This document shows positions 3,010 through 45,773 of a stretch of 64,000 nt of DNA, piece after piece. The stretch spans positions 12,931-76,930 of IMG/VR virus record IMGVR_UViG_3300029288_000145; one strand, given 5' to 3'. Both the position numbers and the translations under genes were made by a program. The notes below the pieces were generated by a model. It was not told where the DNA came from. It saw only the letters and a list, made by a program, of their open reading frames with translations, and did no database searches. How positions within the stretch are numbered: position 1 is the stretch's first letter; every line of letters starts with the position of its first letter. The DNA is from a virus. Taxonomy: Duplodnaviria; Caudoviricetes.

Positions 3010-3378
3010 TTATTTCTGATTATCTATCATAAAATTTAATGCCTCCTTGAAGTTTATTTTGTTGTTTTCTATCCAGTAAGTATATATATCCAATGTGTGT
3101 AAGCACACTCCATTATTATACAAACTCTCAATTATTTTTTTTTCATACTCCTTACAAGAAATACTATAATCTTCATGACAATCACTACATAATGTTATTA
3201 AACTTTCAATAGGATATTCCCATACATTTTTATTGGGTGAATAATAATTATGGTGCACATGCAATGTGTTTGTTTTTGACCCACAATACTGACAGGTAAA
3301 TTCATCTCGTTCTAAAACCTTCAGTCTTATTTTTTGCCATTCTGGGTGATTATATTGTTTGGCAAATTCTTTTTTCAT
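3010..3378 (-). CDS. HNH endonuclease
   Basis: RDEFTCQYCG...LHVHHNYY...LITLCSDCH. Confidence 0.85.
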   Translation of the reverse strand: MKKEFAKQYNHPEWQKIRLKVLERDEFTCQYCGSKTNTLHVHHNYYSPNKNVWEYPIESLITLCSDCHEDYSISCKEYEKKIIESLYNNGVCLHTLDIYTYWIENNKINFKEALNFMIDNQK

Positions 3379-3390
3379 GACATGAAATAT

Positions 3391-3498
3391 TAAAACCCCT
3401 ACTCACAGACGGGTTATTCAGACCTACCTTATGCAAGGATGTGTGTCCGTTTTCGGGGTTCTTTTTAGATTGATTTAACATAAGGTAAATCTGAATAA
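3391..3498 (-). ncRNA. Structured 5' leader RNA of the replication operon (20-bp stem, possible pseudoknot, 27-codon uORF)
   Basis: Arms 3479-3498 and 3414-3433 pair 20/20 on the minus-strand transcript using two G-U wobbles; begins just downstream of the promoter at 3504-3535. Confidence 0.6.
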
Positions 3499-9316: not shown

Positions 9317-11659
9317 ATGATTTATCTTAACAAGTCCTTTAGTGACTCCATTTTCCCCATGCCCAAGGATACCGTTCCCCATGATGACGCATGGTACCTT
9401 AACTGGAGCAAGTTTATTTATAGTTATGGCATACGTCAGTCAAATGGCATATATGCTTTTAAGGATACCCTGAACAACCTCCGGTTATACGGAGCTGGCC
9501 GGCAGTCAATTTCTCCATACATATCACGTATGAACCCCACCGACCCCCTAAAGTCCAGCACGGCGGGAACGGTTGACGACACCTCTATAAAGGGGTATAT
9601 GAACATAAACGAGTCCATCCTCCCTATTATACCCAAATACAGGAACGCCTTTATTGGACTCATGGGACAGATCGAGCACGACATAAGCGTTGACGCCACA
9701 GACGAGGGCAGTGAGCTGGAGCGTATGCAAAAAAAAGAACGTGCCTGGTTTGAGAAAACATTTGCCAAGGAACTCGGTCTTGTTGATGAAGTCCTGGGCA
9801 TGAAAAAAGAAACCCAGGAGTTTACCCCCGACAACAGGGAGGAGTTCGAGGCTTACTGGGAGATGCACAGCGATAAGCTGGAATCAGAGATTGCCCTGCA
9901 AGAGATTATACGTGATGGATTTGCCCAGAGTGATGACCGGGAACTCAATGACCGGCTGTGGGGAGATTTATTCGACCTAAATATGGCCGCCACTATGGAC
10001 TATGTTGACACCGACACCCAGAGGGTAAGAGAACGCTATATTGATGTAGCCAAACTGATTATACAGACAGACGGTGAGAGCCGGTCATACAAAAACTCCA
10101 CCTTTGCCGGATATATGGACACTTATACCATAGCAGATTTACGCAAGGAGACCGGATGGGATGAGGAGTTAATACACGGTCTGGCCGGAACATTCAACAA
10201 CCAATTCGGAAACGAGAACTTAAATCTGAACAGCCCGGCCTCATACTACCTGAACAACAGCACGAATTATGACAACATGTTTGTCCCGGTACTAAGGATA
10301 AACTGGAAGTCTGAGGAGTCCGAAAGCATATCTGTAGAAATAAACGCCGACAAAGTTCGTCCCCAGGAGGTTGATCGTGGCAAGATACAGAAGAAGGGCG
10401 ACAAGTACTTCAAGAAGGTAAAAAACAAGAGCACCTCACACTGGATGGTTCACCAGTGCCAGTGGATTATCGGCACCAACTATATATTTGGCAGCGGAAT
10501 CATGCCCGACCAGATCAGGAGCAAGAACAACTCACGCCTACCATTCCACAAGTACGAACTGAGCGGACAGAGTTTATGTGAGATGAGCATGCAGCCGGCA
10601 GACCAGATGCAGATGGCTTTTTTAAAGCTACAAAATGCTTTAGCAGCAGCACCGAATAAAAAACTTATATTCGATTACGACACCGTTGTTGCCACAGCAA
10701 AAGAACTAAAGGCTTCACCGGCAGATATTCTCACCATCCGGAATATAGGCAACTCAGACATGGTTTTAAAATACCGCACACATAACCCATATACGTTTGA
10801 GCAGAAGCAATCACCACCGTTTATCGAAGTAGAGGGCGGTATAGGAAACTTTCTCGAAGAGTTCCACAAAATATTTGAGAGCCACAGACTTATGCTCGAA
10901 GATTTAACCGGCCTAAGTGCCCTGGTGACTGCTGGCAACCCACAGTCCCAGGCAGTAGGCATAAACCAGATACTGGCCTCGGCAACAAATAACGTATTAA
11001 GACCCATATATAACGCTTTTTGTATTATAAAAAAAGATACAGCACTTAATATGGCCTTACGTGGACAGGTACTCGCCGCCACAAACAGGGGAAAAGATTA
11101 TGGCTATGAAGCTGTAATAGGACAGACAGGTGTAAGTATCTTAACAACACTCTTCAATAAAAACAAAACCCCTATTGATATTGGCATTGTTATCCAGGAA
11201 CGTCCATCACAGAAGGAGCGTGACGAGATAGAGATGATGCTACAGAAGGCCGTTATGTCGGGCAGAGACGGCAAACCATCCATAACAACGGCTGACTACT
11301 TCTTTATAAAACGCATGATGAATCTCCCCGGAGGTGTCAAGAAAGCCCAGCAGATGTTGGCCATACGTGAAAACCAGTTCTTTGAAAGAGAAATAAGGAG
11401 AGCCAATGACGCCAATACCCTCAACAACAAACTCGCCCAGGAGACCGAACAGAAGAAAATGCAGTTTGCCGGTGCCCTGGAGCAGATGAAACTCCAGGTG
11501 GATATTATGCGAAAGAAAAACGAAACAGATGAGGCTATACGCCTCTATGTCGTCCAGGCTATAATTGATGAGAAAATCACCGCTCCCGCTGAATTTATAC
11601 GACAGCTAACCGCCGATGCCATGACTAAACAGGAAGCTACACCAACTACGCCGGCTTAA
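9317..11659 (+). CDS. Portal protein
   Basis: 780 aa; ILPIIPKY-type N-terminal segment, helical character and C-terminal coiled coil typical of large crAss-like/podovirus portals; no other portal candidate in the window. Confidence 0.75.
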   Translation: MIYLNKSFSDSIFPMPKDTVPHDDAWYLNWSKFIYSYGIRQSNGIYAFKDTLNNLRLYGAGRQSISPYISRMNPTDPLKSSTAGTVDDTSIKGYMNINESILPIIPKYRNAFIGLMGQIEHDISVDATDEGSELERMQKKERAWFEKTFAKELGLVDEVLGMKKETQEFTPDNREEFEAYWEMHSDKLESEIALQEIIRDGFAQSDDRELNDRLWGDLFDLNMAATMDYVDTDTQRVRERYIDVAKLIIQTDGESRSYKNSTFAGYMDTYTIADLRKETGWDEELIHGLAGTFNNQFGNENLNLNSPASYYLNNSTNYDNMFVPVLRINWKSEESESISVEINADKVRPQEVDRGKIQKKGDKYFKKVKNKSTSHWMVHQCQWIIGTNYIFGSGIMPDQIRSKNNSRLPFHKYELSGQSLCEMSMQPADQMQMAFLKLQNALAAAPNKKLIFDYDTVVATAKELKASPADILTIRNIGNSDMVLKYRTHNPYTFEQKQSPPFIEVEGGIGNFLEEFHKIFESHRLMLEDLTGLSALVTAGNPQSQAVGINQILASATNNVLRPIYNAFCIIKKDTALNMALRGQVLAATNRGKDYGYEAVIGQTGVSILTTLFNKNKTPIDIGIVIQERPSQKERDEIEMMLQKAVMSGRDGKPSITTADYFFIKRMMNLPGGVKKAQQMLAIRENQFFEREIRRANDANTLNNKLAQETEQKKMQFAGALEQMKLQVDIMRKKNETDEAIRLYVVQAIIDEKITAPAEFIRQLTADAMTKQEATPTTPA

Positions 11660-12051
11660 ACCGTAAAAGTATTTCCTTTGCGGTTTAATGTTTCAAAATA
11701 GAATTTTCCCTCAAACGGCTTTATTTTTACTATATCGAAATTTATACCAACATTCACTATATATAATTTCGCTATTCTTTTATGAACCGTTGTTATTAAA
11801 TCTCTAAACCCTTCTAAATCCCTATCACGCTTGTAGTGGTTGCAACTCCTACAACTTGGCTGAAGGTTGTCGAAGCTGTCAGGGTTAAATTGTTGTTCTT
11901 GTTTGAATAAATTTATGTAATACTTTGCATGAGCCTTGCTTGTTTCATGATCAATTTGCATATCTTTATATTTTATTTCCCTCCCACAATATGCACACCT
12001 ACCACCGTATTTTGCATAAACTCTATTTCTTAACTCAATTCGCTTATTCAT
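11656..12051 (-). CDS. HNH endonuclease
   Basis: RCAYCG...MQIDH...LQPSCRSCNHYK. Confidence 0.85.
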   Translation of the reverse strand: MNKRIELRNRVYAKYGGRCAYCGREIKYKDMQIDHETSKAHAKYYINLFKQEQQFNPDSFDNLQPSCRSCNHYKRDRDLEGFRDLITTVHKRIAKLYIVNVGINFDIVKIKPFEGKFYFETLNRKGNTFTV

Positions 12052-12690: not shown

Positions 12691-13207
12691 ATCATCGCCC
12701 CGTAGATCGTCTTAAAATCGCTCATATCTGTTCATTATTTATCCATGTTCGCTTTAAACGAACACCGCCCAGGAGTGAACACGCTCCATAGGTACCACAA
12801 ACCGGTGCTGATCGCATTATTTTACCCCCATTTTGTCAGGTTTTTAACCCCATAAACTTGACTTTATACTAATTAAATGAAATTACTAACCCATTACCCC
12901 ACCGGTGAACGAACCGCATTTAAACACTCTAAACACATATTTTTTGACTCAAACCGAGCTGTGATTTTTTTAGCTATTTTATACCGCTCGGTTTTGTACA
13001 CGAAATCATAGGTACATATATCAGCCGAGGTTCAAAATAAAAATCCAAATTTGCTAACCCCACCGGCATGTAAATCAATAAGTTATGATGAGATACCAAA
13101 CATATAAAAGTAACTCCCTGATTATCAATTAATTAAAAGCAAATAATCTGCATACACGACGTTCATTCAATTAAAATTAGTTGCTTGATATTCAATTCAT
13201 TCTGTCT

Positions 13208-17326: not shown

Positions 17327-17709
17327 AACAGTTTGTTCCGATCACAACCATAAGCCGTGAAGCACGGTTTTTGGCGCATCCCTGGTGTTATATCCTGAAA
17401 GAAGGGTTTAATACTTATTTTGCCCTGGGAGTAAATTACCGAGAAACGGTTAAGGTTCCGTTTCTCAAAAAGCTAATTGATTCCGATATGATCATGCCGG
17501 GAGGTCATGACAAACATGGCCGGGAGATGTATGTTCGTGGTGTCACCAAGAAAAGCGAAGAGGAAATACGGGACAGTTCGCTGGCGTATGTTTTTCATCT
17601 GCTTTGCAAATATCCTACTATTGAAAAATGGGATTATCCGGGTGCATACTTGGCGGCAAAGAGTAGGCTGGCGGAGGTAGTAAACTCAATTAGACGTAAT
17701 GGTGGCTAA
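17323..17709 (+). CDS. Hypothetical protein
   Basis: 128-aa ORF; its TAA stop lies inside the GGCTAAC core of the following hairpin. Confidence 0.6.
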   Translation: MKQFVPITTISREARFLAHPWCYILKEGFNTYFALGVNYRETVKVPFLKKLIDSDMIMPGGHDKHGREMYVRGVTKKSEEEIRDSSLAYVFHLLCKYPTIEKWDYPGAYLAAKSRLAEVVNSIRRNGG

Positions 17710-17843
17710 CGGTACTTGTGTAAATTTCAGTGCCGTAAAATTAGTACAAACTTTAAATTGAAAATAAAATGAAAAATCAAGTAGAAAATTATCAACAAAG
17801 CACTGCACAGGCATTGAATTTACACAATGTTAGCAGTAGTGCC
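17704..17843. mobile_element. attC-like imperfect inverted repeat (cassette site 1)
   Basis: GGCTAAC-GGTAC-TTGTGTAAATTTCAGTGCC ... GGCATTGAATTTACACAA-T-GTTAGC; arms pair with one bulged base and one G-T. Confidence 0.65.
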
Positions 17844-18002
17844 AAAGGTGGACTTCGTAAAATTAAAGATGCAGAGCAACCTTGCCTACATCCTGAACAT
17901 AATCCACCGATGCACATTTATTTAACAGCAGGAACTTATGAATACACCTGCCCTTCTTGTGGCAAGGTTACGACATTCACAGTGCCATTGATTACGTTTT
18001 AG
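17769..18002 (+). CDS. Small putative Zn-binding protein (cassette gene 1)
   Basis: CLHPEHNPPMH...CPSCG; the start codon lies inside the hairpin loop. Confidence 0.65.
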   Translation: MKNQVENYQQSTAQALNLHNVSSSAKGGLRKIKDAEQPCLHPEHNPPMHIYLTAGTYEYTCPSCGKVTTFTVPLITF

Positions 18003-18018
18003 AGGCATTACTGCTAAC

Positions 18019-18093
18019 TAGTTGGTATAGTCACCTTCTAAATATAGTTGCGTGAATATCAGCAATGTAGTGTTATTTAGTCTAATTAAAATT
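18019..18093. other. Conserved tripartite site X1 (box A, 31-nt spacer with TGAnnnTCA, box B)
   Basis: TAGTTGGTATAGTCACCTTCTAAATA...TGAATATCA...TATTTAGTCTAATTAAAA; closely matches 32562-32636. Confidence 0.7.
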
Positions 18094-18436
18094 ACTTCTC
18101 AATAATGGTTATTTGATACAGGGCTTCAACGATCTTTTTTTTAATCCGAAACATAGCATAAGCGGAACCGGACTTCATTCCCTTAACATCCCAGACCTCC
18201 GTATGTCCATCGGCAAAAGTTATGAGGAAATCTGCCTTATAAAATCCACAGTTAATGTCATTTATTATTATGTCATACCTAGGCTGGCAAATGTATTCCG
18301 TAATAACCTTGCCTCGTTTAAGCAGTTCAAGTTGTGCCGCATAGTTAGCTTCCTTCTTAGAGTCATAAATACGTCCATTAAATTCCGTCCGTTTGGCGTG
18401 GAACTTATTTCTTTTTGTAAAAGGATGAGAAGTCAT
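18092..18436 (-). CDS. DUF1064-like PD-(D/E)XK nuclease (possible resolvase)
   Basis: NKFHAKRT...YDSKKEA.Y...YKADF...WDVKG. Confidence 0.8.
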   Translation of the reverse strand: MTSHPFTKRNKFHAKRTEFNGRIYDSKKEANYAAQLELLKRGKVITEYICQPRYDIIINDINCGFYKADFLITFADGHTEVWDVKGMKSGSAYAMFRIKKKIVEALYQITIIEK

Positions 18437-21400
18437 AACTATTATCGTTTGGTGCGGTCATTTGTTGCATGTATCTGTTATAAGCAGACTTGGCTCCCAG
18501 TAGTGCTGCCGATACTGCTGATACCAGGTCACAGTCCTTTAAATACTCAATACCCCTCATTCTCTTACACTCTTCTAAAAAGTCATCATGCTTTATCCGG
18601 GCGCTGTGATATTCGATATAATCACGCACAGAATTAAACCTGTCCTGGTTGGCGGCGGCACCTGCCCAGAAACCGGGTTTTTCAACAATCTTTCCAGTAA
18701 CATTATCAATGTCGTGTAATAAATATCCACCAAAGCCAAATTCAATAAAATCCCTCCAGAGTGTTTTGATATTGTTCTCCAAGTACATCATAGAGCCAAA
18801 GTACACACACATTTTTATCATGTCCCAGGAATATTCACTGCCGGCAGGTCGGTAACGATAGGTACATACGATATTATATGTCTCCCATTCTGATACCTCT
18901 TTGTTGTCCGGGTCAATATTCATATCTCTTAGACGAAGTACGGCACCACCACCATCGGACATTCTTTCACGAGATTCACGTAGCTGTGCCTCTGTCTTTG
19001 TTGAAAACTCAAAGGGGTCTCCACCGGCCACATACTTTCCGGGAAAGGCGGGATAGTAAATGCCATCTTTGAGAACTCTCTTACTCCTGATCTCTTCAGG
19101 TGGCATGTGTGAAAGCAAAAAGCGTCCATCGGGATTTTCTTTAAACACAACTTTGCCGGTTTGGTCTCCTCCCTCAAACTCGAAATTACCCCTTATCGGC
19201 TTATCCTTACCCGTCAGGCGATATAATTCTGCTAACTGGTCATTTATCTTGACTGTGTTAAATCCGATTGATGTGGAGGCTCCTTGGAAGCACTCGGCAT
19301 ATGTTGTTGGAAAGAGTTCAACAAACCTGTGATATTGCCTCATGGCTGTCGGCGTGCCTTTTGATAGCAATATCTGTCTCTGGGATGAAATAAAATCTTT
19401 GGCACCATAATTCTTTTTGATAAAGGCCGCCTGATCTGGAGTCGGATTGCTTATAACTGACAGTCCGTGCTTGTCTATAAACCCCTTCATACCGTCATAG
19501 GCAGGTATGAAAAGCGTTCTTAGTCCTGATGCTGTCTGCCCGGTAAGCTCGTTGATCTGCTCAAACCGGGACTGTTCACACAAACGCCTGAAGTTGGATA
19601 TTGTTACGGCATTAGCCTCCTCTACCGTTGTCGGGTGGATGCTGAAACCGACAATCTCATCTCCTATTGACTGACATTCTTTGACGACATTCCACCGGTC
19701 AAATATGTCCTCTTGACTTTCCCTGGTGTTATGAACAACGGTGTAATCTGACAATAAAAACCTTCTATTTCCATCAATAATAAAACCATAATAGTTGCCA
19801 ACACCCATTAATTCAACACGAAATCCAGTGTGTTTAGGGTTTCTGGAATTTTTGTTTTTATTTTCAATAATTGGCATTTTTTTTCGTGGAATGAGACAAT
19901 GTATTCTGTGCATATCAAATCCATAAATGCGTACTCGGTAAACGGGACAAGTATAAATTGGCTTGTTTGGCCTTTTTAGAGTGGCTATTTTTGCGTGAAT
20001 AGTACTACCAAACCCACAACTAAGTGCCAAATCTTTTACCTGTTCAGCTAATATTGGTAATTTTAGGGTTATTTCGTATACGCATTTATTTTTAGTGGTA
20101 CATCTGTGACCATCCGTGTCTATTATGCCAGCCAATAATTTAAGTCGATTGTCTATACTATCAACTAAATAATCTTTTATTATGTGTTTATTACGGATTA
20201 AATTATTACTACTTAAAAATCTTTGAATATAATTTATTTGGCGACCATGTGAAATAAATTTATATCCCTTATAGTATCCAACATACTTTGTATAATTTGA
20301 TATAAGATTCTCATTTAAACCAAGTTTGGTTGCAGCATCTTTTCTACTATGATACCGATTTATAAAATTATTATTTCTATCATAACAATCAAATATAGCG
20401 GTTCTTTTCTTCGATAACCGATAAGTTATTCCATCTTCTTTTATAACCACCTTATATCCACCCTCTTTTGCGTAGTTATAAATGTAATTTATTACTTCTT
20501 TATCCACATTAGTTATGGCTGGTTCAGCAGAAGCACCATCTCCTAGCCATAAACCATACAAATATGGGTCTATTATGTGTTGTTTTTCAGGATAATCTAC
20601 CCCAACACTATATAATACTAATCCACGCTTTTGATATTTTGACAATTTTAAATAATCTAATACGGTTAATTCTATTATTTGTCCTTTTTTATATTTATAA
20701 GAATAAAATTGAGATTCATCACTTATCTTACATACGAGAATATGATTACTATTACACACCCAAGGGTCGCCTTTATTTGGTATTATCTTATATAGATCGT
20801 CCTGTCCACATACGGTAGATAATACATTTCGTTCTATTGAATCATCTCCCATAAGCAAATCGCCAGGAAGAATGTCTTGAACCATTTTAACGTCTCCATT
20901 ATACATTCTTATAGGCGTATCCTTACCAAAACAGTTTCCTTCTTCATCACTCAGTATGTATTTTAGCTTTTTACCGTTATAATAAGACTTGTCAGAGGTC
21001 TGGGCGTAGTCGAATTTTGTTTTAAGTTCCTTCTTTTTATACAGGATAATCTTACCGTCCTTATTTCGTTCTGCCGGGGCGTTGCAGCTTATATTTTCCT
21101 TGGGATTGGTAGAACTATCCACCATTGGCTTAAAGTAAAACGGTATCTTCTGAAAGGCCGGAACAAGTTTATCGGAAAATTGTGTCTTGGCATTGGCAGA
21201 GGTGTAAGATTGTAGCCCTATAAGAGCTGCTATAGACCGGGTGCCGATCTCCAGACCTACAGATATTGACTTGTGCGTGGCACCATCCCTCCTGTGCTTG
21301 GGATAACAGAAGCCATAACATATCAACCTGCCGTAATCTTTAAGTTTTACGTCTCCATTATCATCTACAGCAACTTTTTTTGGCCGTCCCTTGTCGTCCC

Positions 21401-21926
21401 ATTCGGAATATACGGGTGCTTTTGTTGTTGTGGCACAATCCCTGGCAAAGAGGAACCACCGTCTGTCCCTATCCCTGTATTCGGCGGCACCTATATCCAG
21501 GTTGTAAACGGCTAAATACCAGTAATGCCAGCCATCCAGAAATGTTGGCTTGCCGTTATTAAAAAACCAGTATCCGTATAGCCTGTAATGCCATTGACGT
21601 TTTATCCATAATATCTCATCCTTATAATATTTCTGCCGGGCTTGCAGTTCGTTCCACACATCATCGGCAAAGGTATGTTTGTCAATAAGTTTGAGTATCT
21701 TTTTTGGTGTCGGTGGAATACGCCAGTATTGTTCATCACAGGGTTCGCCAAATCCATCTATAAGATGCCATACAGGAGGTTCCGGCAGGTTTATACGCTG
21801 GGCGGTTAAGTCCGGGTCATTGTCATTAATGTAAAAATGGGTGTCGGCATCCTTGTAGGTAATGAGAATATCCGGCTTTATAAGGGGTGAACTCTTATAA
21901 TATTCAAGTGCCTGTAGTCTCTTCAT
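18405..21926 (-). CDS. terL: Terminase large subunit containing an intein
   Basis: PKHRRDGAT Walker A-like motif, YILSDEEG Walker B, C-terminal nuclease motifs AGGDP and D.VSA; 402-aa intein inserted. Confidence 0.85.
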   Translation of the reverse strand: MKRLQALEYYKSSPLIKPDILITYKDADTHFYINDNDPDLTAQRINLPEPPVWHLIDGFGEPCDEQYWRIPPTPKKILKLIDKHTFADDVWNELQARQKYYKDEILWIKRQWHYRLYGYWFFNNGKPTFLDGWHYWYLAVYNLDIGAAEYRDRDRRWFLFARDCATTTKAPVYSEWDDKGRPKKVAVDDNGDVKLKDYGRLICYGFCYPKHRRDGATHKSISVGLEIGTRSIAALIGLQSYTSANAKTQFSDKLVPAFQKIPFYFKPMVDSSTNPKENISCNAPAERNKDGKIILYKKKELKTKFDYAQTSDKSYYNGKKLKYILSDEEGNCFGKDTPIRMYNGDVKMVQDILPGDLLMGDDSIERNVLSTVCGQDDLYKIIPNKGDPWVCNSNHILVCKISDESQFYSYKYKKGQIIELTVLDYLKLSKYQKRGLVLYSVGVDYPEKQHIIDPYLYGLWLGDGASAEPAITNVDKEVINYIYNYAKEGGYKVVIKEDGITYRLSKKRTAIFDCYDRNNNFINRYHSRKDAATKLGLNENLISNYTKYVGYYKGYKFISHGRQINYIQRFLSSNNLIRNKHIIKDYLVDSIDNRLKLLAGIIDTDGHRCTTKNKCVYEITLKLPILAEQVKDLALSCGFGSTIHAKIATLKRPNKPIYTCPVYRVRIYGFDMHRIHCLIPRKKMPIIENKNKNSRNPKHTGFRVELMGVGNYYGFIIDGNRRFLLSDYTVVHNTRESQEDIFDRWNVVKECQSIGDEIVGFSIHPTTVEEANAVTISNFRRLCEQSRFEQINELTGQTASGLRTLFIPAYDGMKGFIDKHGLSVISNPTPDQAAFIKKNYGAKDFISSQRQILLSKGTPTAMRQYHRFVELFPTTYAECFQGASTSIGFNTVKINDQLAELYRLTGKDKPIRGNFEFEGGDQTGKVVFKENPDGRFLLSHMPPEEIRSKRVLKDGIYYPAFPGKYVAGGDPFEFSTKTEAQLRESRERMSDGGGAVLRLRDMNIDPDNKEVSEWETYNIVCTYRYRPAGSEYSWDMIKMCVYFGSMMYLENNIKTLWRDFIEFGFGGYLLHDIDNVTGKIVEKPGFWAGAAANQDRFNSVRDYIEYHSARIKHDDFLEECKRMRGIEYLKDCDLVSAVSAALLGAKSAYNRYMQQMTAPNDNSYDFSSFYKKK
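19728..20933 (-). mobile_element. Intein (Hom_end/PI-SceI-like HINT) with LAGLIDADG homing endonuclease
   Basis: N-junction N|CFGKDT, block B CNSNHIL, LYGLWLGDG, LLAGIIDTDG, C-junction VVHN|T; 1206 nt and noticeably more AT-rich than the flanks. Confidence 0.93.
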
Positions 21927-22612: not shown

Positions 22613-22684
22613 TAGCGAGGGGTGGAATCGAACCACCGACTATGGGATTATGAGTCCCACCTTCTACCACTGAAATACCTCGCA
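22613..22684 (-). tRNA. tRNA with CAT anticodon (Met; initiator-like acceptor stem), CCA not encoded
   Basis: TGCGAGG TA TTTC AGTGGTA GAAG G TGGGA CTCATAA TCCCA TAGTC GGTGG TTCGATT CCACC CCTCGCT A; all four stems pair. Confidence 0.92.
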
Positions 22685-24804: not shown

Positions 24805-25120
24805 GGAGTTGTTTAAGAAGATTGAGGCCGAACCTCATCGTGCATTTACGTATATAATGTCAATATTTGACGGTATATACAATGATATGATGGAAGCCTG
24901 TGGCCGGGAGGAGAATCCAAATGCAGTCATGGAAATCGTAAATATGCACAATAAGAAATACAAAAGAATCTCAGTGGCAATAAACAAACATATTGAACAA
25001 CGCTATGGTATAAAGAATTTACTCCGTAGTGAGGCGTTCCTGGACACTATAAAGTCCAATATTTTAATGGACAAACAAGCGTTCCATGTGTATAACTGCT
25101 ACTGGGGATTATCGAACTAA
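24791..25120 (+). CDS. Hypothetical protein
   Basis: 109-aa ORF. Confidence 0.55.
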   Translation: MRKYKELFKKIEAEPHRAFTYIMSIFDGIYNDMMEACGREENPNAVMEIVNMHNKKYKRISVAINKHIEQRYGIKNLLRSEAFLDTIKSNILMDKQAFHVYNCYWGLSN

Positions 25121-25121
25121 T

Positions 25122-25874
25122 ATGGAAGATCAAAAGAAGTATGTAGGGTACATCCGTGTATCAACAAAAAAACAGGGTGACAGTGGTGCCGGACTTGAAA
25201 GCCAGGAGGCTATTATTAAGGCTAAGGCCGGGGATAACCTGGTGAAAATATTTCGAGAGATCGAATCCACACGCAAGAGCAACAAGCGGTTTGAATTTTA
25301 CAAGGCACTCAATATGTGTGTTGAAAACGGCTATGTACTTTGCATAGCCAAGATTGACCGTGCTATACGTGATATGGACTTGCTTATGTCTCTGGAGAAG
25401 GCGGTATCTGCCGGCAACCTCGAATTTTTTATCTGCAACCGACCCTGGGCAGATAAATATACTATCAGAAATGACGTGAATAATGCCGAGCAGGAACGCC
25501 AGTGGATTTCTGAACGTACCAAGGCCGGGCTTGCTGTGGTTAAACTCAGGGGAACTAAAACCGGAAAGCCATATATGCCTCCGAGGGGATTTCGTGAGGA
25601 CAGAGCACGTCTTGAACGGGCTATTATTGCCAGCAGGGAGGCTAAGACAATTAAGAGACTGTGCCATCCGGAAATGATCAAGAGCCGTGCATTTATGATG
25701 GAACTACATAACTCCGGAAAGAGTGGGTGGGCTATTGCCAATGAACTTAATAAGAATGGGTTTAAAACCTCCACCGGCGGCCAGTGGCGACAGGGTTCTG
25801 TCTATACCACACTACAATTACCCTTTGATGAGGGTATTGTAGAAAAATATAGGGACGTTTACCAATGGCTATAA
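25122..25874 (+). CDS. Small serine recombinase (resolvase/invertase family)
   Basis: YVGYIRVSTKKQ (catalytic Ser), GLESQ, IAKIDRAIR, ERQWISERTKAGL, C-terminal IANELNKNGFKT..GGQW; start moved to MEDQKK. Confidence 0.9.
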   Translation: MEDQKKYVGYIRVSTKKQGDSGAGLESQEAIIKAKAGDNLVKIFREIESTRKSNKRFEFYKALNMCVENGYVLCIAKIDRAIRDMDLLMSLEKAVSAGNLEFFICNRPWADKYTIRNDVNNAEQERQWISERTKAGLAVVKLRGTKTGKPYMPPRGFREDRARLERAIIASREAKTIKRLCHPEMIKSRAFMMELHNSGKSGWAIANELNKNGFKTSTGGQWRQGSVYTTLQLPFDEGIVEKYRDVYQWL

Positions 25875-31817: not shown

Positions 31818-31903
31818 CAAATTTAATTTATATAAAATAAAATACCAAACTGACCCTTTTTGAAAATAAATTTGGATTTATGGAGGTGTATTTTGTATCT
31901 TTG
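31818..31903. promoter_or_regulatory. Back-to-back promoters: class B (minus, capsid operon) and class A (plus, accessory island)
   Basis: Minus: GTCAGTTTGG, N20, TAAATTTG. Plus: AAAATAAATTTGG, N21, TATCTTTG. Confidence 0.75.
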
Positions 31904-31925: not shown

Positions 31926-32021
31926 ATGAGTGGACTATGGCTTTTTATTTCGGGAGTAGTGATTGGTGCTTTACTGTGTTTAATTTGCATGGCTGTTTTT
32001 TTTCCGGACATTGAAGAATAA
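31926..32021 (+). CDS. 31-aa membrane peptide (not in ORF track)
   Basis: MSGLWLFISGVVIGALLCLICMAVFFPDIEE. Confidence 0.5.
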   Translation: MSGLWLFISGVVIGALLCLICMAVFFPDIEE

Positions 32022-32032
32022 AAATAAATATT

Positions 32033-32128
32033 ATGGGTGTTTACAGATGGTGCGAAACCGGCGATTGGTTGCTATGTGGAAAAGTGAAACAAGGAATAGA
32101 CGGTGAATTTATTGAGTGGTTCACTTAA
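32033..32128 (+). CDS. 31-aa peptide (not in ORF track)
   Basis: MGVYRWCETGDWLLCGKVKQGIDGEFIEWFT after an A-rich leader. Confidence 0.4.
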   Translation: MGVYRWCETGDWLLCGKVKQGIDGEFIEWFT

Positions 32129-32132
32129 TGGT

Positions 32133-32225
32133 ACATAACGGTTGAGGCTAAAAGCAGTTGCCTTGAATACTGCTTGAAATTACGCACAGACTATCTAGCA
32201 ATTGCTTTTAGCCTGTGTTATAAAC
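32133..32225. mobile_element. attC-like imperfect inverted repeat (cassette site 2)
   Basis: ACATAAC-GGTTG-AGGCTAAAAGCAGTTGC ... GCAATTGCTTTTAGCCT-GT-GTTATAAAC; arms 16/17 complementary. Confidence 0.65.
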
Positions 32226-32235
32226 TGTAAAAATT

Positions 32236-32544
32236 ATGGGCGAATATGCAGATATGGCAATAGAAAGTGGTTTGTCAAATTATATTGACTTTAAAACCCA
32301 TAGCGGAATTTATGAGAATGATGATTATTTAGACGAGTGGGAGGGTGAAGACATACCATTCATTCGTGCTGAAAAGTGGGATAGTTTTGGATTCCTTGAA
32401 ATAAAAAGAGAAACAAAAAAGGCTTGGTTACTCATAATGAATGGTAAGGCTGAGCGTTGGTTTCCAAAAAAGCATTGTAAGATTAAAGGCAATATAATTT
32501 TACTTCCAATATGGCTACGCAATAAAATGGCAGGATGGGAATAA
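32236..32544 (+). CDS. Hypothetical protein (cassette gene 2)
   Basis: MGEYADMAIE... N-terminus; KRETKKAWLL...ERWFPK small beta-barrel-like segment. Confidence 0.65.
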   Translation: MGEYADMAIESGLSNYIDFKTHSGIYENDDYLDEWEGEDIPFIRAEKWDSFGFLEIKRETKKAWLLIMNGKAERWFPKKHCKIKGNIILLPIWLRNKMAGWE

Positions 32545-32561
32545 TTTTTATTGTTTATAAC

Positions 32562-32636: not shown

Positions 32637-32655
32637 AACGTATTATTTGAACAGA

Positions 32656-32685
32656 GAGGGGATGCCAACTTAATGACACCCCCTC
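32656..32685 (-). terminator. Hairpin ending the lysis operon
   Basis: GAGGGGGTGTCA/TGGCATCCCCTC, 12 bp with two G-U pairs that only work on the minus strand. Confidence 0.6.
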
Positions 32686-32707
32686 GCCAGATTAAGTTAT
32701 TTACAGC

Positions 32708-37000: not shown

Positions 37001-38611
37001 CGGGCTTGTTGATACTGATGAACTTGGGGAGGTGGATAATGAACTGCTTATACTTTCACTTATTGACGAACTTATTGAACTGGATGGACTGCTTGATATT
37101 GATAGACTTGGCGATAATGATATTGAACTACTTTCACTACTACTGATAGAACTACTTATAGATAATGAAGGACTTAACGAGGCCGAACTGGATGGTGATA
37201 AACTGATACTTGAAGAAATAGATAATGATGGTGACAGGCTTACGCTACTTGACGGCGACAGACTGATACTTGTTGATGGTGATAGGCTGGCCGATGGACT
37301 AGCCGATACCGATGTTGATATTGACGAGGATATTGATGATATGGGATTGCCCAAAAATATAACGACATACGCTCCATATATTCCTATTTCACCATTAACA
37401 GGGACAACAACGGTGGGTAGATAATTTTTGCCATCATTAAGGGTTAATGCTACCGTCCTTACCCTTTCCTTATTTGAATTAGCGAATTCTATTTTGGAAT
37501 TTGTTATATGGGCATCTACGGTGCCTGAGTCAGCATTATCCTCACCCAGATCGACATAAATATCACCATCAACAGATTCGTTTCCAGTGACCTCAAAATA
37601 CGGCGTATATGTAGAGTATGCGTTGGCATCAAAAAACATCCTTCCCTCTGTGTGTTCCTGCGCCACACCTATACCCGCATAACCCCGGCTGATTCTATAA
37701 TAAACGTCTATGGCGGTAACATTTATTACCCGGAGATATAATCTTGCCTCACTTATCCTGGCGTTGTAACTTTCACTGCCAGATTTTATTTTTACCTCTA
37801 TCAGATCGCCGTTATCAAAGTTTGTAGCATTGTTGGCGAAACTGACCGAACAAAGTGTTGGCGTGGTACTGTTGGTAGATACTTCACTTCCGGTTATTGC
37901 GTTTCCTGACGAATCATATAAACAGGCATATGCTGTGGATGCTGCATTTTCAGAGTACATAACAACCTCAAATGTCCATACATTACCAGAACCAATTGTA
38001 GAGAACCTGTTTTCATCCTTCTTAAAATATGCGTATCTTTTTGGTATATCTTGGGTATAAGATGTGCTTGTTGTGGAATCAACAGCAGTACCATTAAACC
38101 GTGAGGATTCTCCAAAATCACTTCCAATAAGGGGTATTTGTATTCTTGTATTTACGAACTGATTCTGTTGTACTATTATCCGTGATGAATATACCTTTAC
38201 CTCGTTATTTACCGATGTGCCGGGTATTTCTATGTCATAATCATTTGCACCACCAACCATAGATAGTGCCGCTGTGCGAAACCGGGTTGGCACCGTTGTC
38301 CCTCCCGGAACGGGTATGGCATCAATAATACTAACACCATTTACCAGGCGTGGGGAATAACTGCCGGCGTTGTCGTTTGTGGCAACTATTTCCCAGTAAT
38401 ATGTGCCATTATAGTAATCAGCGGTATCAATATTTATCCTTGTCCTTGTAAATGTTGTATCGGTGGTTGAACTGGTACAGGTAAGGCTACAATTATCCAG
38501 GGGTATTTCAAATATTGGGGAACCAGCACTTGGGCTTGGCGAACTCGACAGTGATCTTGAAGGAGATACTGAGGCTGAAGGTGAACTCGATATGGATGTT
38601 GATGTAGACAT
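34007..38611 (-). CDS. Serine-rich repeat virion-region protein (1534 aa; about 400-aa beta domain + about 1100-aa S-X-S stalk)
   Basis: Alternating Ser with P/I/V/L/T/S; one VPATTTVKVNFWGIIL spacer; hydrophobic NFFMVM C-terminus. Confidence 0.8.
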   Translation of the reverse strand: MSTSTSISSSPSASVSPSRSLSSSPSPSAGSPIFEIPLDNCSLTCTSSTTDTTFTRTRINIDTADYYNGTYYWEIVATNDNAGSYSPRLVNGVSIIDAIPVPGGTTVPTRFRTAALSMVGGANDYDIEIPGTSVNNEVKVYSSRIIVQQNQFVNTRIQIPLIGSDFGESSRFNGTAVDSTTSTSYTQDIPKRYAYFKKDENRFSTIGSGNVWTFEVVMYSENAASTAYACLYDSSGNAITGSEVSTNSTTPTLCSVSFANNATNFDNGDLIEVKIKSGSESYNARISEARLYLRVINVTAIDVYYRISRGYAGIGVAQEHTEGRMFFDANAYSTYTPYFEVTGNESVDGDIYVDLGEDNADSGTVDAHITNSKIEFANSNKERVRTVALTLNDGKNYLPTVVVPVNGEIGIYGAYVVIFLGNPISSISSSISTSVSASPSASLSPSTSISLSPSSSVSLSPSLSISSSISLSPSSSASLSPSLSISSSISSSESSSISLSPSLSISSSPSSSISSSISESISSSLSTSPSSSVSTSPSSSVSTSVSTSPSTSVSSSVSPSTSVSRSLSSSVSTSLSSSVSLSPSSSLSSSPSSSVSSSVSPSTSVSSSISASPSTSISSSISSSISSSVSLSPSLSISSSISLSPSSSISSSPSLSPSLSISLSPSRSVSSSPSSSQSESVSSSVSTSLSSSVSPSTSISSSVSSSPSESVSSSPSLSPSRSISSSPSSSVSSSVSPSTSPSTSISLSPSISVSSSVSTSPSISVSSSPSTSVSSSRSHSPSRSLSSSISTSPSTSISSSPSSSRSSSVSPSTSISSSLSSSPSESVSTSVSNSPSTSLSSSPSLSPSQSISPSTSISSSVSTSESSSPSTSLSSSVSSSPSSSVSPSSSISESFSGSHSTSISSSVSSSPSSSASPSTSPSLSPSTSISLSPSLSISSSVSSSPSSSASSSVSSSASSSLSSSLSSSPSASLSVPATTTVKVNFWGIILSSPSTSVSPSSSISVSPSSSISVSPSSSASRSISSSPSTSISSSISSSPSRSISSSISLSPSLSISSSVSSSVSLSPSTSLSSSVSLSPSLSISSSVSHSLSTSPSLSPSSSVSSSVSLSPSRSISSSISLSPSLSISSSISLSPSLSVSSSPSLSPSGSISSSASTSPSTSISTSISASPSESPSSSLSSSVSPSTSPSSSVSRSPSSSVSTSISTSPSGSVSSSPSSSPSGSISLSPSLSISLSPSSSISLSPSLSISSSISVSPSESVSLSPSSSPSGSISLSVSSSISGSVSPSTSPSVSISSSPSISPSKSVSTSPSSSASESISLSPSLSVSTSVSSSPSLSPSSSPSSSPSSSISESISHSLSSSVSPSESISESFSGSHSTSISSSPSSSPSSSVSPSSSISTSLSLSPSLSISSSLSTSISASVSPSTSISESISLSPSTSISISISASPSTSISLSPSSSVSSSISQSISLSPSSSVSSSISLSPSSSVSASLSTSISSSISHSPSTSLSSSPSLSISASPSPPATNHNFFMVM

Positions 38612-44868: not shown

Positions 44869-45773
44869 ACTGTTTTCCTTATTATTGCTGTTTCATAACC
44901 AAGAGCTTTAAGTATCCCTGCCCGGTGGCATCCGTCTATAAGGCGGTTGTCGGTACGTACTACAAGAGGACTTTTCAATCCTTTGAGCTTTACATTATTA
45001 TACAAGTCCAGTTTACTTAATAAGAAATTGTCTGCTTCTTTTTCAGACCATTTTTTACTCCTGTATTTGCGCAAAAAGTTGGCGTATTCGGACTTCATGG
45101 GACTATGGCTGGTATAGAAATCCATTGTGCTGTCACTATTTCCTATTGATTTAATAGGCACCCGGTCAAGGTGTTTGCTTTTAAATATGATAGACGACAT
45201 CTCCCTGGGTGACGGGTCTCCTTCTGGATTTATCCAGGGAATATAACCGGTTTCCTCCCAGTCTTTGAAGTATTCCCTGAGAGCTTCTATGGATGATAAC
45301 GCCCTCCATGATTTGTATGTTGTTTTTACGGTGACGATAAGGCAATATCTGGTCTTGTATTGTAGTTTGTCTAGATATTCAAGCCAATCAATGATTCTTA
45401 GGTGGTAGTGGACGTTTACAAGTACAGTAACATCAGCCAATGGAAGGAAATTAGTGGCTTTTGTTAGGTCGTCTAATATTATGTTGTAATCAAGGTCATG
45501 ATCATCACGGTATTTTATTCCTCGTTCCCATGCGCCTTTATCTGATTCAACTCCTATTACCCGTTTATATCCAAGTTCTTTTGCGAGACCCAGATATAAT
45601 CCGGCATTGCACCCACCTTCAATGTATGTCAGTTCTTTACATAGTTTTGGTAGTAAGGGAAGTACAAAGTAGTTCCATTTTCCCACGTCCCAGAATTTGC
45701 TGTTTTTTTCAAGTTCATACCTTTCGTTTGTGGGATCGCCAGGCAGGTGTTGATATACGTTGTATTCTTTCAT
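44865..45773 (-). CDS. SAM methyltransferase fused to a ParB/Srx-like C-terminal domain
   Basis: IEGGCNAGLY...VIGVESD; C-terminal GLKSPLVV...RLIDGCHRAGILKALG. Confidence 0.7.
   Translation of the reverse strand: MKEYNVYQHLPGDPTNERYELEKNSKFWDVGKWNYFVLPLLPKLCKELTYIEGGCNAGLYLGLAKELGYKRVIGVESDKGAWERGIKYRDDHDLDYNIILDDLTKATNFLPLADVTVLVNVHYHLRIIDWLEYLDKLQYKTRYCLIVTVKTTYKSWRALSSIEALREYFKDWEETGYIPWINPEGDPSPREMSSIIFKSKHLDRVPIKSIGNSDSTMDFYTSHSPMKSEYANFLRKYRSKKWSEKEADNFLLSKLDLYNNVKLKGLKSPLVVRTDNRLIDGCHRAGILKALGYETAIIRKTV

Follow-up and report, generated by a model that had tools for sequence, protein, structure and literature searches.

We identified a 422-bp unit, joining an imperfect hairpin to a single small gene, in a 64,000-nucleotide (nt) stretch of a viral genome (Duplodnaviria; Caudoviricetes; IMG/VR record IMGVR_UViG_3300029288_000145, positions 12,931 to 76,930). 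This whole stretch is hereafter the window, and positions follow its numbering unless another locus is named. With a probability of roughly three in four, we read the unit (window 32140-32561) as a mobile cassette of an integron-like site-specific recombination system that belongs to the chromosomes of Bacteroidota (Flavobacteriaceae) and to their phages. The unit, referred to as cassette 2, is one of four cassette loci (cassettes 1 to 4, or c1 to c4) in the window's genome (G000), a linear IMG/VR virus contig of 76,930 bp with a CheckV completeness of 66%. Comparison with other phage contigs establishes it as a discrete mobile module with junctions at AAC/GTT triplets, and hairpins of the same family occur in chromosomal cassette arrays that start beside a tyrosine recombinase.

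Cassette 2 sits in a short plus-strand island flanked by two minus-strand gene blocks, and its parts are collected in Table 1. The unit, measured from after the left TAAC through the right TAAC, begins behind a resident flank that is the same as the flank before cassette 1 (TAATGGTnnnTAAC). The arms of its hairpin (32145-32161 and 32198-32214) are 17 nt long and complementary at 16 of 17 positions around a 36-nt loop, the single mismatch being a G.T pair on the plus strand; folded as RNA, the hairpin reaches -32 kcal/mol (z = -3.25). The core behind it, GTTATAAAC, has a partner in the left TAAC in the integrated unit and in the right end in a circular one, and the inverted repeat that encloses the open reading frame (ORF) of 102 amino acids (aa) extends to 21 nt (19/21). 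The preliminary description, which had listed TAAC, the spacer GGTTG, arm, loop, arm, GT and core, followed by a 102-aa gene and the exact reverse complement of the 9-bp core, had placed each of these elements correctly. The cargo protein has no Pfam family and weak PHROG matches, and its Atlas matches are phage hypothetical proteins only; a scan against Rfam found no family at the cassette hairpins.

Table 1. Features of cassette 2, its surroundings and its sister cassettes (window coordinates)
Feature	Position	Strand	Remarks
Candidate promoter TAAATTTG, fitting the Bacteroidota -7 promoter consensus	31867-31874	+	heads the small plus-strand island
Resident 31-aa ORF, membrane-like	31926-32021	+	repeat family D1
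Resident 31-aa ORF	32033-32128	+	repeat family D1
Resident flank TAATGGTACATAAC, terminating in left core TAAC (32136-32139)	32126-32139	+	left junction after AAC
attC-like imperfect hairpin with spacer GGTTG (32140-32144) and closing spacer GT	32140-32216	+	sequence and folding
Core GTTA plus cassette-specific bases, GTTATAAAC	32217-32225	+	sequence reading
Cargo gene, 102 aa, phage hypothetical protein family	32236-32544	+	ORF
Closing inverse core GTTTATAAC, exact complement of GTTATAAAC	32553-32561	+	right junction after TAAC
~80-nt site TAGCTGGTAT..TTCTAAATA..TGAtaATCA..TATTTAGTCTAATTAAAA	32562-32636	+	candidate attI-like landing site
G+C-rich hairpin between plus-strand island and convergent 194-aa gene	32654-32687	.	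outside the cassette
Cassette 1 with its 80-nt site	17707-18093	+	TAAC 17707-17710; GTTA 17829-17832; closing TAAC 18015-18018; site 18019-18093
Cassette 1 cargo, 77-aa zinc-ribbon ORF	17769-18002	+	
c1 core pair			X = GTTAGCAGTAGTGCC; X' = GGCATTACTGCTAAC
c2 core pair			X = GTTATAAAC; X' = GTTTATAAC
c3 core pair			X = GTTATAGCC; X' = GGCTATAAC
c4 core pair			X = GTTACCTGCC; X' = GGCAGGTAAC

A scan of the 76.9-kb genome for the pattern TAAC, spacer, long stem, spacer, GTTA returned exactly c1 to c4, where shuffled genomes gave 0.37 hits on average (both strands); the scan was based on stem duplexes, a scan on fold energy alone having failed to separate true sites from noise. Two of the four, c3 and c4, lie beyond the window on the opposite strand. 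All are built in the same order: the end of a resident gene in ...TAAC, a spacer of 4-5 nt, an imperfect stem of 17-20 bp, a loop of 36-90 nt, 1-2 nt, GTTA-X, the cargo gene, X'-TAAC, and a conserved block of about 80 nt. Behind GTTA, each locus has 5-11 nt of its own, whose complement stands before the closing TAAC; the end pairing spans 9 nt in cassette 2 and 9-15 nt in the sister cassettes. Considered by itself, the 9-mer core pair of cassette 2 is weak (the window has 3 matches where about 1 is expected, and 9 of 100 shuffles reach 3), which is what speaks for the notion that the inverted repeats arose by chance in A+T-rich DNA between genes, next to an ordinary small gene; since the architecture recurs and the unit is shared exactly between genomes, this notion is refuted, and we give it practically no weight.

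Alignment of cassettes 1 and 2 revealed both flanks in common and an unrelated interior; together with the four-locus comparison, it agrees with the preliminary observation that the arms are unrelated while TAACGGT and TGTTA at the hairpin base are shared. The same architecture unites 11 distinct hairpins with unrelated arm sequences, each with an asymmetric internal loop of 3-5 unpaired bases beside the 5' AAC and 0-2 opposite. When both strands were folded and set beside cassette 1, as the preliminary description had proposed, the architecture was the same and the plus (gene-sense) strand folded better; this strand preference extends to all 11 hairpins, through G.T pairs that include the conserved TAACG/TGTTA base. 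The sister cassettes carry different cargo, among it a PAPS-reductase-like gene (c3) and a C5 DNA methyltransferase (c4). In cassettes 1, 3 and 4, as in several of the metagenomic cassettes, the start codon lies within the hairpin loop. Most homologues of the zinc-ribbon protein of cassette 1 (P0015-P0047) are 51-60 aa long and lack the first ~25 residues, which in the phage are encoded by hairpin loop and arm, so that here translation of the recombination site yields an N-terminal leader.

The cluster at 90% identity to which the 102-aa protein belongs has members on other metagenomic contigs; the loci compared below carry L numbers. One of them, L032, lies on a 77-kb T4-like phage contig encoding topoisomerase II, RNA ligase and an RNase H-type exonuclease. 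Over the 20 kb compared, the sole DNA that L032 has in common with G000 is a segment of 370 bp at 97.3% identity (G000 45063-45432, window 32133-32502), which starts 3 bases before the left TAAC, crosses the hairpin and continues into the gene; the sole protein clearly in common is the cassette's own, apart from a borderline 68-aa match (E 4e-4). In L032, the unit forms part of a tandem cassette array among small accessory genes, one cassette of which carries an MT-A70 methyltransferase with the same X/X' as c4, and it closes at a different TAAC, again pairing with its own GTTA core (TTTATAAC). About 50 kb of the L032-type phage were inspected, and no integrase stands among the precomputed hits listed. 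The same locus also contains two hairpins in reverse order (GTTA-X, short loop, X'-TAAC; L032:9493-9562 and L032:9845-9908), which hold no ORF and look like cassette segments without cargo; the first reuses the inner-arm sequence of cassette 2.

Further loci resolve the junctions to the triplet. L036 has kept the gene and the left arm and lost 38 nt including the right arm, and homology among G000, L032 and L036 starts right after AAC; as L036 reads GAAC where the others read TAAC, the junction lies within or just after AAC. In L039, L040, L042 and L037, the segment GTTATAAAC...GTTTATAAC (95-97% amino-acid identity) stands behind two other hairpins, and the sequence after the closing ...GTTTATAAC differs in all four of G000, L039, L040 and L037. 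Cassette 1 behaves likewise: its copy in L051, within an array of four hairpin cassettes, matches exactly from TAAC to TAAC (312 bp, 95.5%), with flanks that differ on both sides. In total, the unit of cassette 2 occurs in at least six genomic contexts with breakpoints at AAC/GTT cores, and cassettes 1 and 2 together provide at least eight independent junctions exactly at AAC/GTT triplets. These contexts support the earlier proposal of a discrete 422-bp unit acquired separately from cassette 1 by the same mechanism. The possibility that homologues elsewhere would lack hairpin and complementary cores was not borne out in L032, L039/L040, L037 and L036, all of which carry both; distant homologues of the two cargo genes (L001, L046) lie in ordinary operons without hairpins. 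A hairpin that travels with its gene stands upstream of it (G000, L032 and L036; L051 for cassette 1). Among the aligned loci, the hairpin most often moves with the gene it precedes, and exchange across its other side happens as well.

These exchanges could also be explained if the hairpin were chiefly an element of the messenger RNA (mRNA), a 5' stabiliser, processing site or translation-start structure, and if modules were exchanged by general phage recombination at TAACGGT and TGTTA. On this view, the hairpin resembles the promoter/stem-loop cassettes (PeSLs) of T4-type phages, functional analogues made of conserved promoter-terminator sequences that recombine by homology (PMC2839356, PMC4122927). 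Like PeSLs, the cassettes place a stem-loop before each small accessory phage gene, their modules are swapped between phages, and circular intermediates have been proposed for both; L032 is itself T4-like, with its array among small accessory genes, and G000 encodes a YqaJ-type exonuclease. The stability of all 11 hairpins on the transcribed strand, with pairs compatible with G.U, the start codons in the loops and the breakpoints on both sides of the hairpin fit such an element as well. PeSLs, however, are conserved in sequence and driven by homology, whereas the cassettes have only 4-7 nt conserved, their arms and loops being unrelated, and their junctions are exact to the triplet. It is hard to see what an mRNA would gain from end complementarity across the gene, and the chromosomal sites described next stand downstream of genes, on the untranscribed strand and beside a tyrosine recombinase. 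We therefore consider an mRNA element an unlikely account of the cassettes.

A covariance model (R1), trained on five phage hairpins (c3, c4, L032_H1, L040_MT and L051_h2), recovered phage hairpins absent from its training set, including that of c1, and led from the phages to bacterial chromosomes. The site form behind the R1 family is TAACG, 3-5 nt, long stem, loop, stem, 0-2 nt and TGTTA. R1 matched three of four arbitrarily chosen Flavobacteriales genomes and 26 of 101 genomes of the Myroides family (Flavobacteriaceae) at E <= 1e-4, and none of five genomes outside Flavobacteriales. In Myroides odoratimimus (L060:7061-15450, G003 contig 44), the array starts 170 bp from a 279-aa tyrosine recombinase and runs in the order marR and an arr-like gene; hairpin; tet(X)-like monooxygenase; hairpin; hydrolase, MFS transporter and an erm-like gene; hairpin; ere-like gene. 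The end-pairing rule of the phage cassettes holds in this array too (GTTATGTGCC...GGCACATAAC).

Against models of integron integrases, the Myroides recombinase gives a two-piece match that skips the IntI-specific part and falls below every curated cut-off (195 bits against a cut-off of 265 for TIGR02249). Of five other genomes with such hairpins, four have homologues at 38-57% identity; two of these (L068 and L070) show a hairpin within 0.4-2 kb of the gene, and elsewhere the contig ends beside the gene or the array is unseen. The site that adjoins the recombinase in L070 is 85 nt long and of the same build as that of cassette 2. Genes of the chromosomal arrays run antisense to the strand modelled by R1, so that a site follows each gene, whereas phage genes run sense, and the site leads the gene. 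With a Xer-like recombinase in L060, L068 and L070 and none in the G000 contig, the phage loci are orphan sites.

Which enzyme moves the cassette in the phage bears on two further explanations. The recombination-type genes of G000 comprise a 262-aa serine recombinase, three small HNH proteins and the YqaJ-type exonuclease, none of them near the cassettes. The serine recombinase (25086-25874, plus strand) consists of a resolvase domain and a fragment of the 'Recombinase' domain, is followed by family-less ORFs of 67 and 177 aa, and may be a truncated or split large serine recombinase; the stand-alone HNH genes encode 113-131 aa (L029:4550-4891, window 3010-3378 and window 11656-12051, all on the minus strand). 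That the phage itself supplies the mover, as this serine recombinase or one of the HNH nucleases, is suggested by the fact that the contig yielded no other recombinase- or nuclease-like genes. We judge it highly improbable: besides their distance from every cassette, the 80-nt site has no matching dimer symmetry, and a tblastn search of 20 kb of L032 yielded no homologue except a borderline HNH-like match. Serine recombinases, moreover, act on double-stranded sites with a 2-bp crossover and not on hairpins.

Alternatively, the unit could be a non-autonomous single-strand transposon of the IS200/IS605 or REP/RAYT kind, inserted 3' of TAAC by an HUH (Y1) enzyme. IS608 offers the model, as its hairpin and a neighbouring tetranucleotide direct targeting, and cassette 2 matches it in the tetranucleotide beside the hairpin, in insertion after TAAC without a longer duplication and in strand-biased folding. 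Unlike IS200/IS605 elements, each unit has one hairpin and not two subterminal ones, and the G000 contig has no match to the Y1 transposase (PF01797); end complementarity and the association with a chromosomal tyrosine recombinase are foreign to that family. We hold this origin to be very unlikely too.

In the integron-like reading, a tyrosine recombinase acts on the folded site. Read on the opposite strand, the phage locus has the order of a one-cassette integron: conserved site, G/TTA (where the cassette starts), cargo, inverse core, hairpin and resident G/TTA. Excision as a circle would join the unit's ends, GTTTATAAC to GGTTGAGG / GGTTGAGGCT, and would add a 9-bp outer helix (GTTTATAAC with GTTATAAAC) to the hairpin; the complementarity of the ends across the gene would then follow from the circular intermediate. 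Reconstituted in this way, the cassettes reach folding energies of -21.6 to -26.1 kcal/mol, compared with -15.3 to -16.5 kcal/mol in the integrated state, the X'/X helix lengthening every hairpin. In terms of attC, the outer helix would be equivalent to the R box, the long arms to the L box, and the internal loop of 5 nt against 2 nt to the unpaired spacer. The folded site would be single-stranded DNA, formed by the strand reading 5'-TAACG...TGTTA-3' (gene-sense in cassette 2), and the recombinase would exchange strands at the AAC triplet beside the long spacer. The comparisons between genomes imply this crossover position, on the better-folding strand, and the chromosomal arrays imply it too.

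The circle would have been inserted between the resident ...TAAC and the ~80-nt site, and the expected empty site would join TGGTACATAAC to TAGCTGGTAT (..ACATAAC to TAGCTGG). The ~80-nt block starts TAGYTGGTAT and has four copies in the genome, each directly 3' of a cassette; outside G000, searches of IMG/VR, metagenome contigs and GTDB genomes returned chance matches or nothing. As a decayed hairpin site, the block found no support: a 7-bp stem is possible in c2 and c3, and c1 and c4 show no compensation. The enzyme would probably resemble the short Xer-like recombinases that accompany these sites in chromosomes of Flavobacteriaceae; as none is encoded in 77 kb, either the host or a co-infecting element would supply it in trans, or the missing third of the genome would encode it. 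Because phage cargo reads away from the hairpin, the hairpin would also form the 5' leader of the cargo mRNA.

From here, we tentatively extend the reading to a wider proposal, of which we are ourselves rather doubtful: Bacteroidota phages may keep dedicated landing sites (in G000, the four copies of the ~80-nt site), borrow the short Xer-like recombinase of the host and swap hairpin-led cassettes with unrelated phages and with host chromosomes. If true, this would amount to a phage-wide counterpart of the integron whose integrase acts in trans and whose recombination site is the 5' leader of the cargo gene.

Several observations weigh against the integron-like reading. A six-frame search of the 76.9-kb contig, rated 66% complete, found no tyrosine recombinase (PF00589). 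R1 covers the hairpin class of about 125 nt, and the 85-nt hairpin of cassette 2 is placed in the family by its architecture only. The ~80-nt site is unlike the region between recombinase and first cassette in Myroides. Breakpoints also occur on the GTTA side of the hairpin, where a model with a single crossover does not predict them: L039 and L037 have other hairpins before the same gene, and L049 contains only the GTTA..TAAC part of cassette 1. Phage relatives were not found by DNA, by flanking proteins or by the exact core-plus-start sequence in IMG/VR, and neither an excised circle nor an empty site was observed; the collections searched contain no close phage relative that would show the unoccupied site. 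The stability of the hairpins on the transcribed strand and the start codons in the loops of other cassettes would suit a role of the hairpin in mRNA equally well.

Set beside known systems, the cassette works like an integron cassette and is not a classical one. It departs from three features that define classical integrons (PMC5027507), as IntI is missing, the cargo runs the other way and the internal loop has another placement; the label 'integron-like' of the preliminary description thus holds for the way of working and fails as membership in IntI integrons. Like an integron attC, the cassette site is an imperfect hairpin with an R box (AAC/GTT), an L box and a variable terminal structure, in which structure is kept and not sequence; at 85-132 nt, the sites fall within the attC range. 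As in integron cassettes, boundaries lie at AAC, and each cassette begins with bases that complement the inverse core of its own site. Unlike IntI, the companion enzyme in the relatives is a short Xer-like recombinase that lacks the IntI insert. In classical attC sites, the extrahelical bases and the cleaved AAC of the recombinogenic strand lie on opposite arms (PMC5027507); in the long-armed sites described here (17-22 bp), one arm holds both the junction AAC and the 3-5 extra unpaired bases that immediately follow it on the 3' side. The cargo reads away from its own site or, in other cassettes, starts inside it, and G000 has four dispersed single-cassette loci instead of one array.

Two published systems come closest. 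CALINs, clusters of attC sites without an integrase, have been reported in virulent phages (Qi et al. 2023, PMC9892861), and the cassettes resemble them in the absence of an integrase from the phage and in the DNA methyltransferases carried by sister cassettes; against R1, the published CALIN phages P12002L and MW202573 gave at best a weak match (E 0.47). Polaribacter phage P12002L has a 49-nt TAAC..GTTA hairpin between two methyltransferase genes (L030:30008-30056), which Qi et al. 2023 probably included among the attC sites they tested, and GGGTAAC...GTTACC arms at 38015-38110. The nearest published integron-like platform in Bacteroidota, as far as its description goes, is rAID-1 of Bacteroidales (Ross et al., 10.1101/471110), in which a XerD-family tyrosine recombinase heads a co-directional array of accessory genes, with intergenic repeats that its authors call reminiscent of integrons. 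Compared by that description alone, rAID-1 concerns immunity genes in chromosomes of gut Bacteroidales, and hairpin anatomy, end pairing and carriage by phages fall outside what is described.

Around cassette 2, the two resident 31-aa ORFs and the cassette gene have a common start context, TAAAnATTATG. The promoter consensus of Bacteroidota at -7 is TAnnTTTG; besides the candidate at the head of the island, the same promoter-like motif (AAAATAAATTTGGAAAA) also stands 3' of the c3 and c4 sites. The G+C-rich hairpin behind the ~80-nt site is likely a bidirectional terminator. Elsewhere in the window, a 1173-aa ORF (18405-21926, minus strand) contains an intein with a Hint domain, a LAGLIDADG homing endonuclease and NUMOD1, and a tRNA gene lies at 22613-22684 (minus strand; Rfam, 63.7 bits). 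An intergenic hairpin at 3414-3498 (20-nt arms, 90% complementary, 45-nt loop) has no TAAC/GTTA cores and falls outside the cassette family.

The cassettes provide unrelated phages with a base-exact route for swapping single accessory genes, and tie this route to a chromosomal cassette system of Flavobacteriaceae whose Myroides version combines arr-, tet(X)-, erm- and ere-like resistance genes with an adjacent recombinase that lacks the domain held to define integron integrases. New in G000 are its four dispersed single-cassette loci, all adjoining a candidate landing site that is conserved among them, and a cargo orientation that is systematically inverted in phages. If the proposed mechanism is true, integron-like gene capture would be broader than IntI, phages would be vectors for such cassettes, and structure-specific recombination sites of a different geometry would be open to study.

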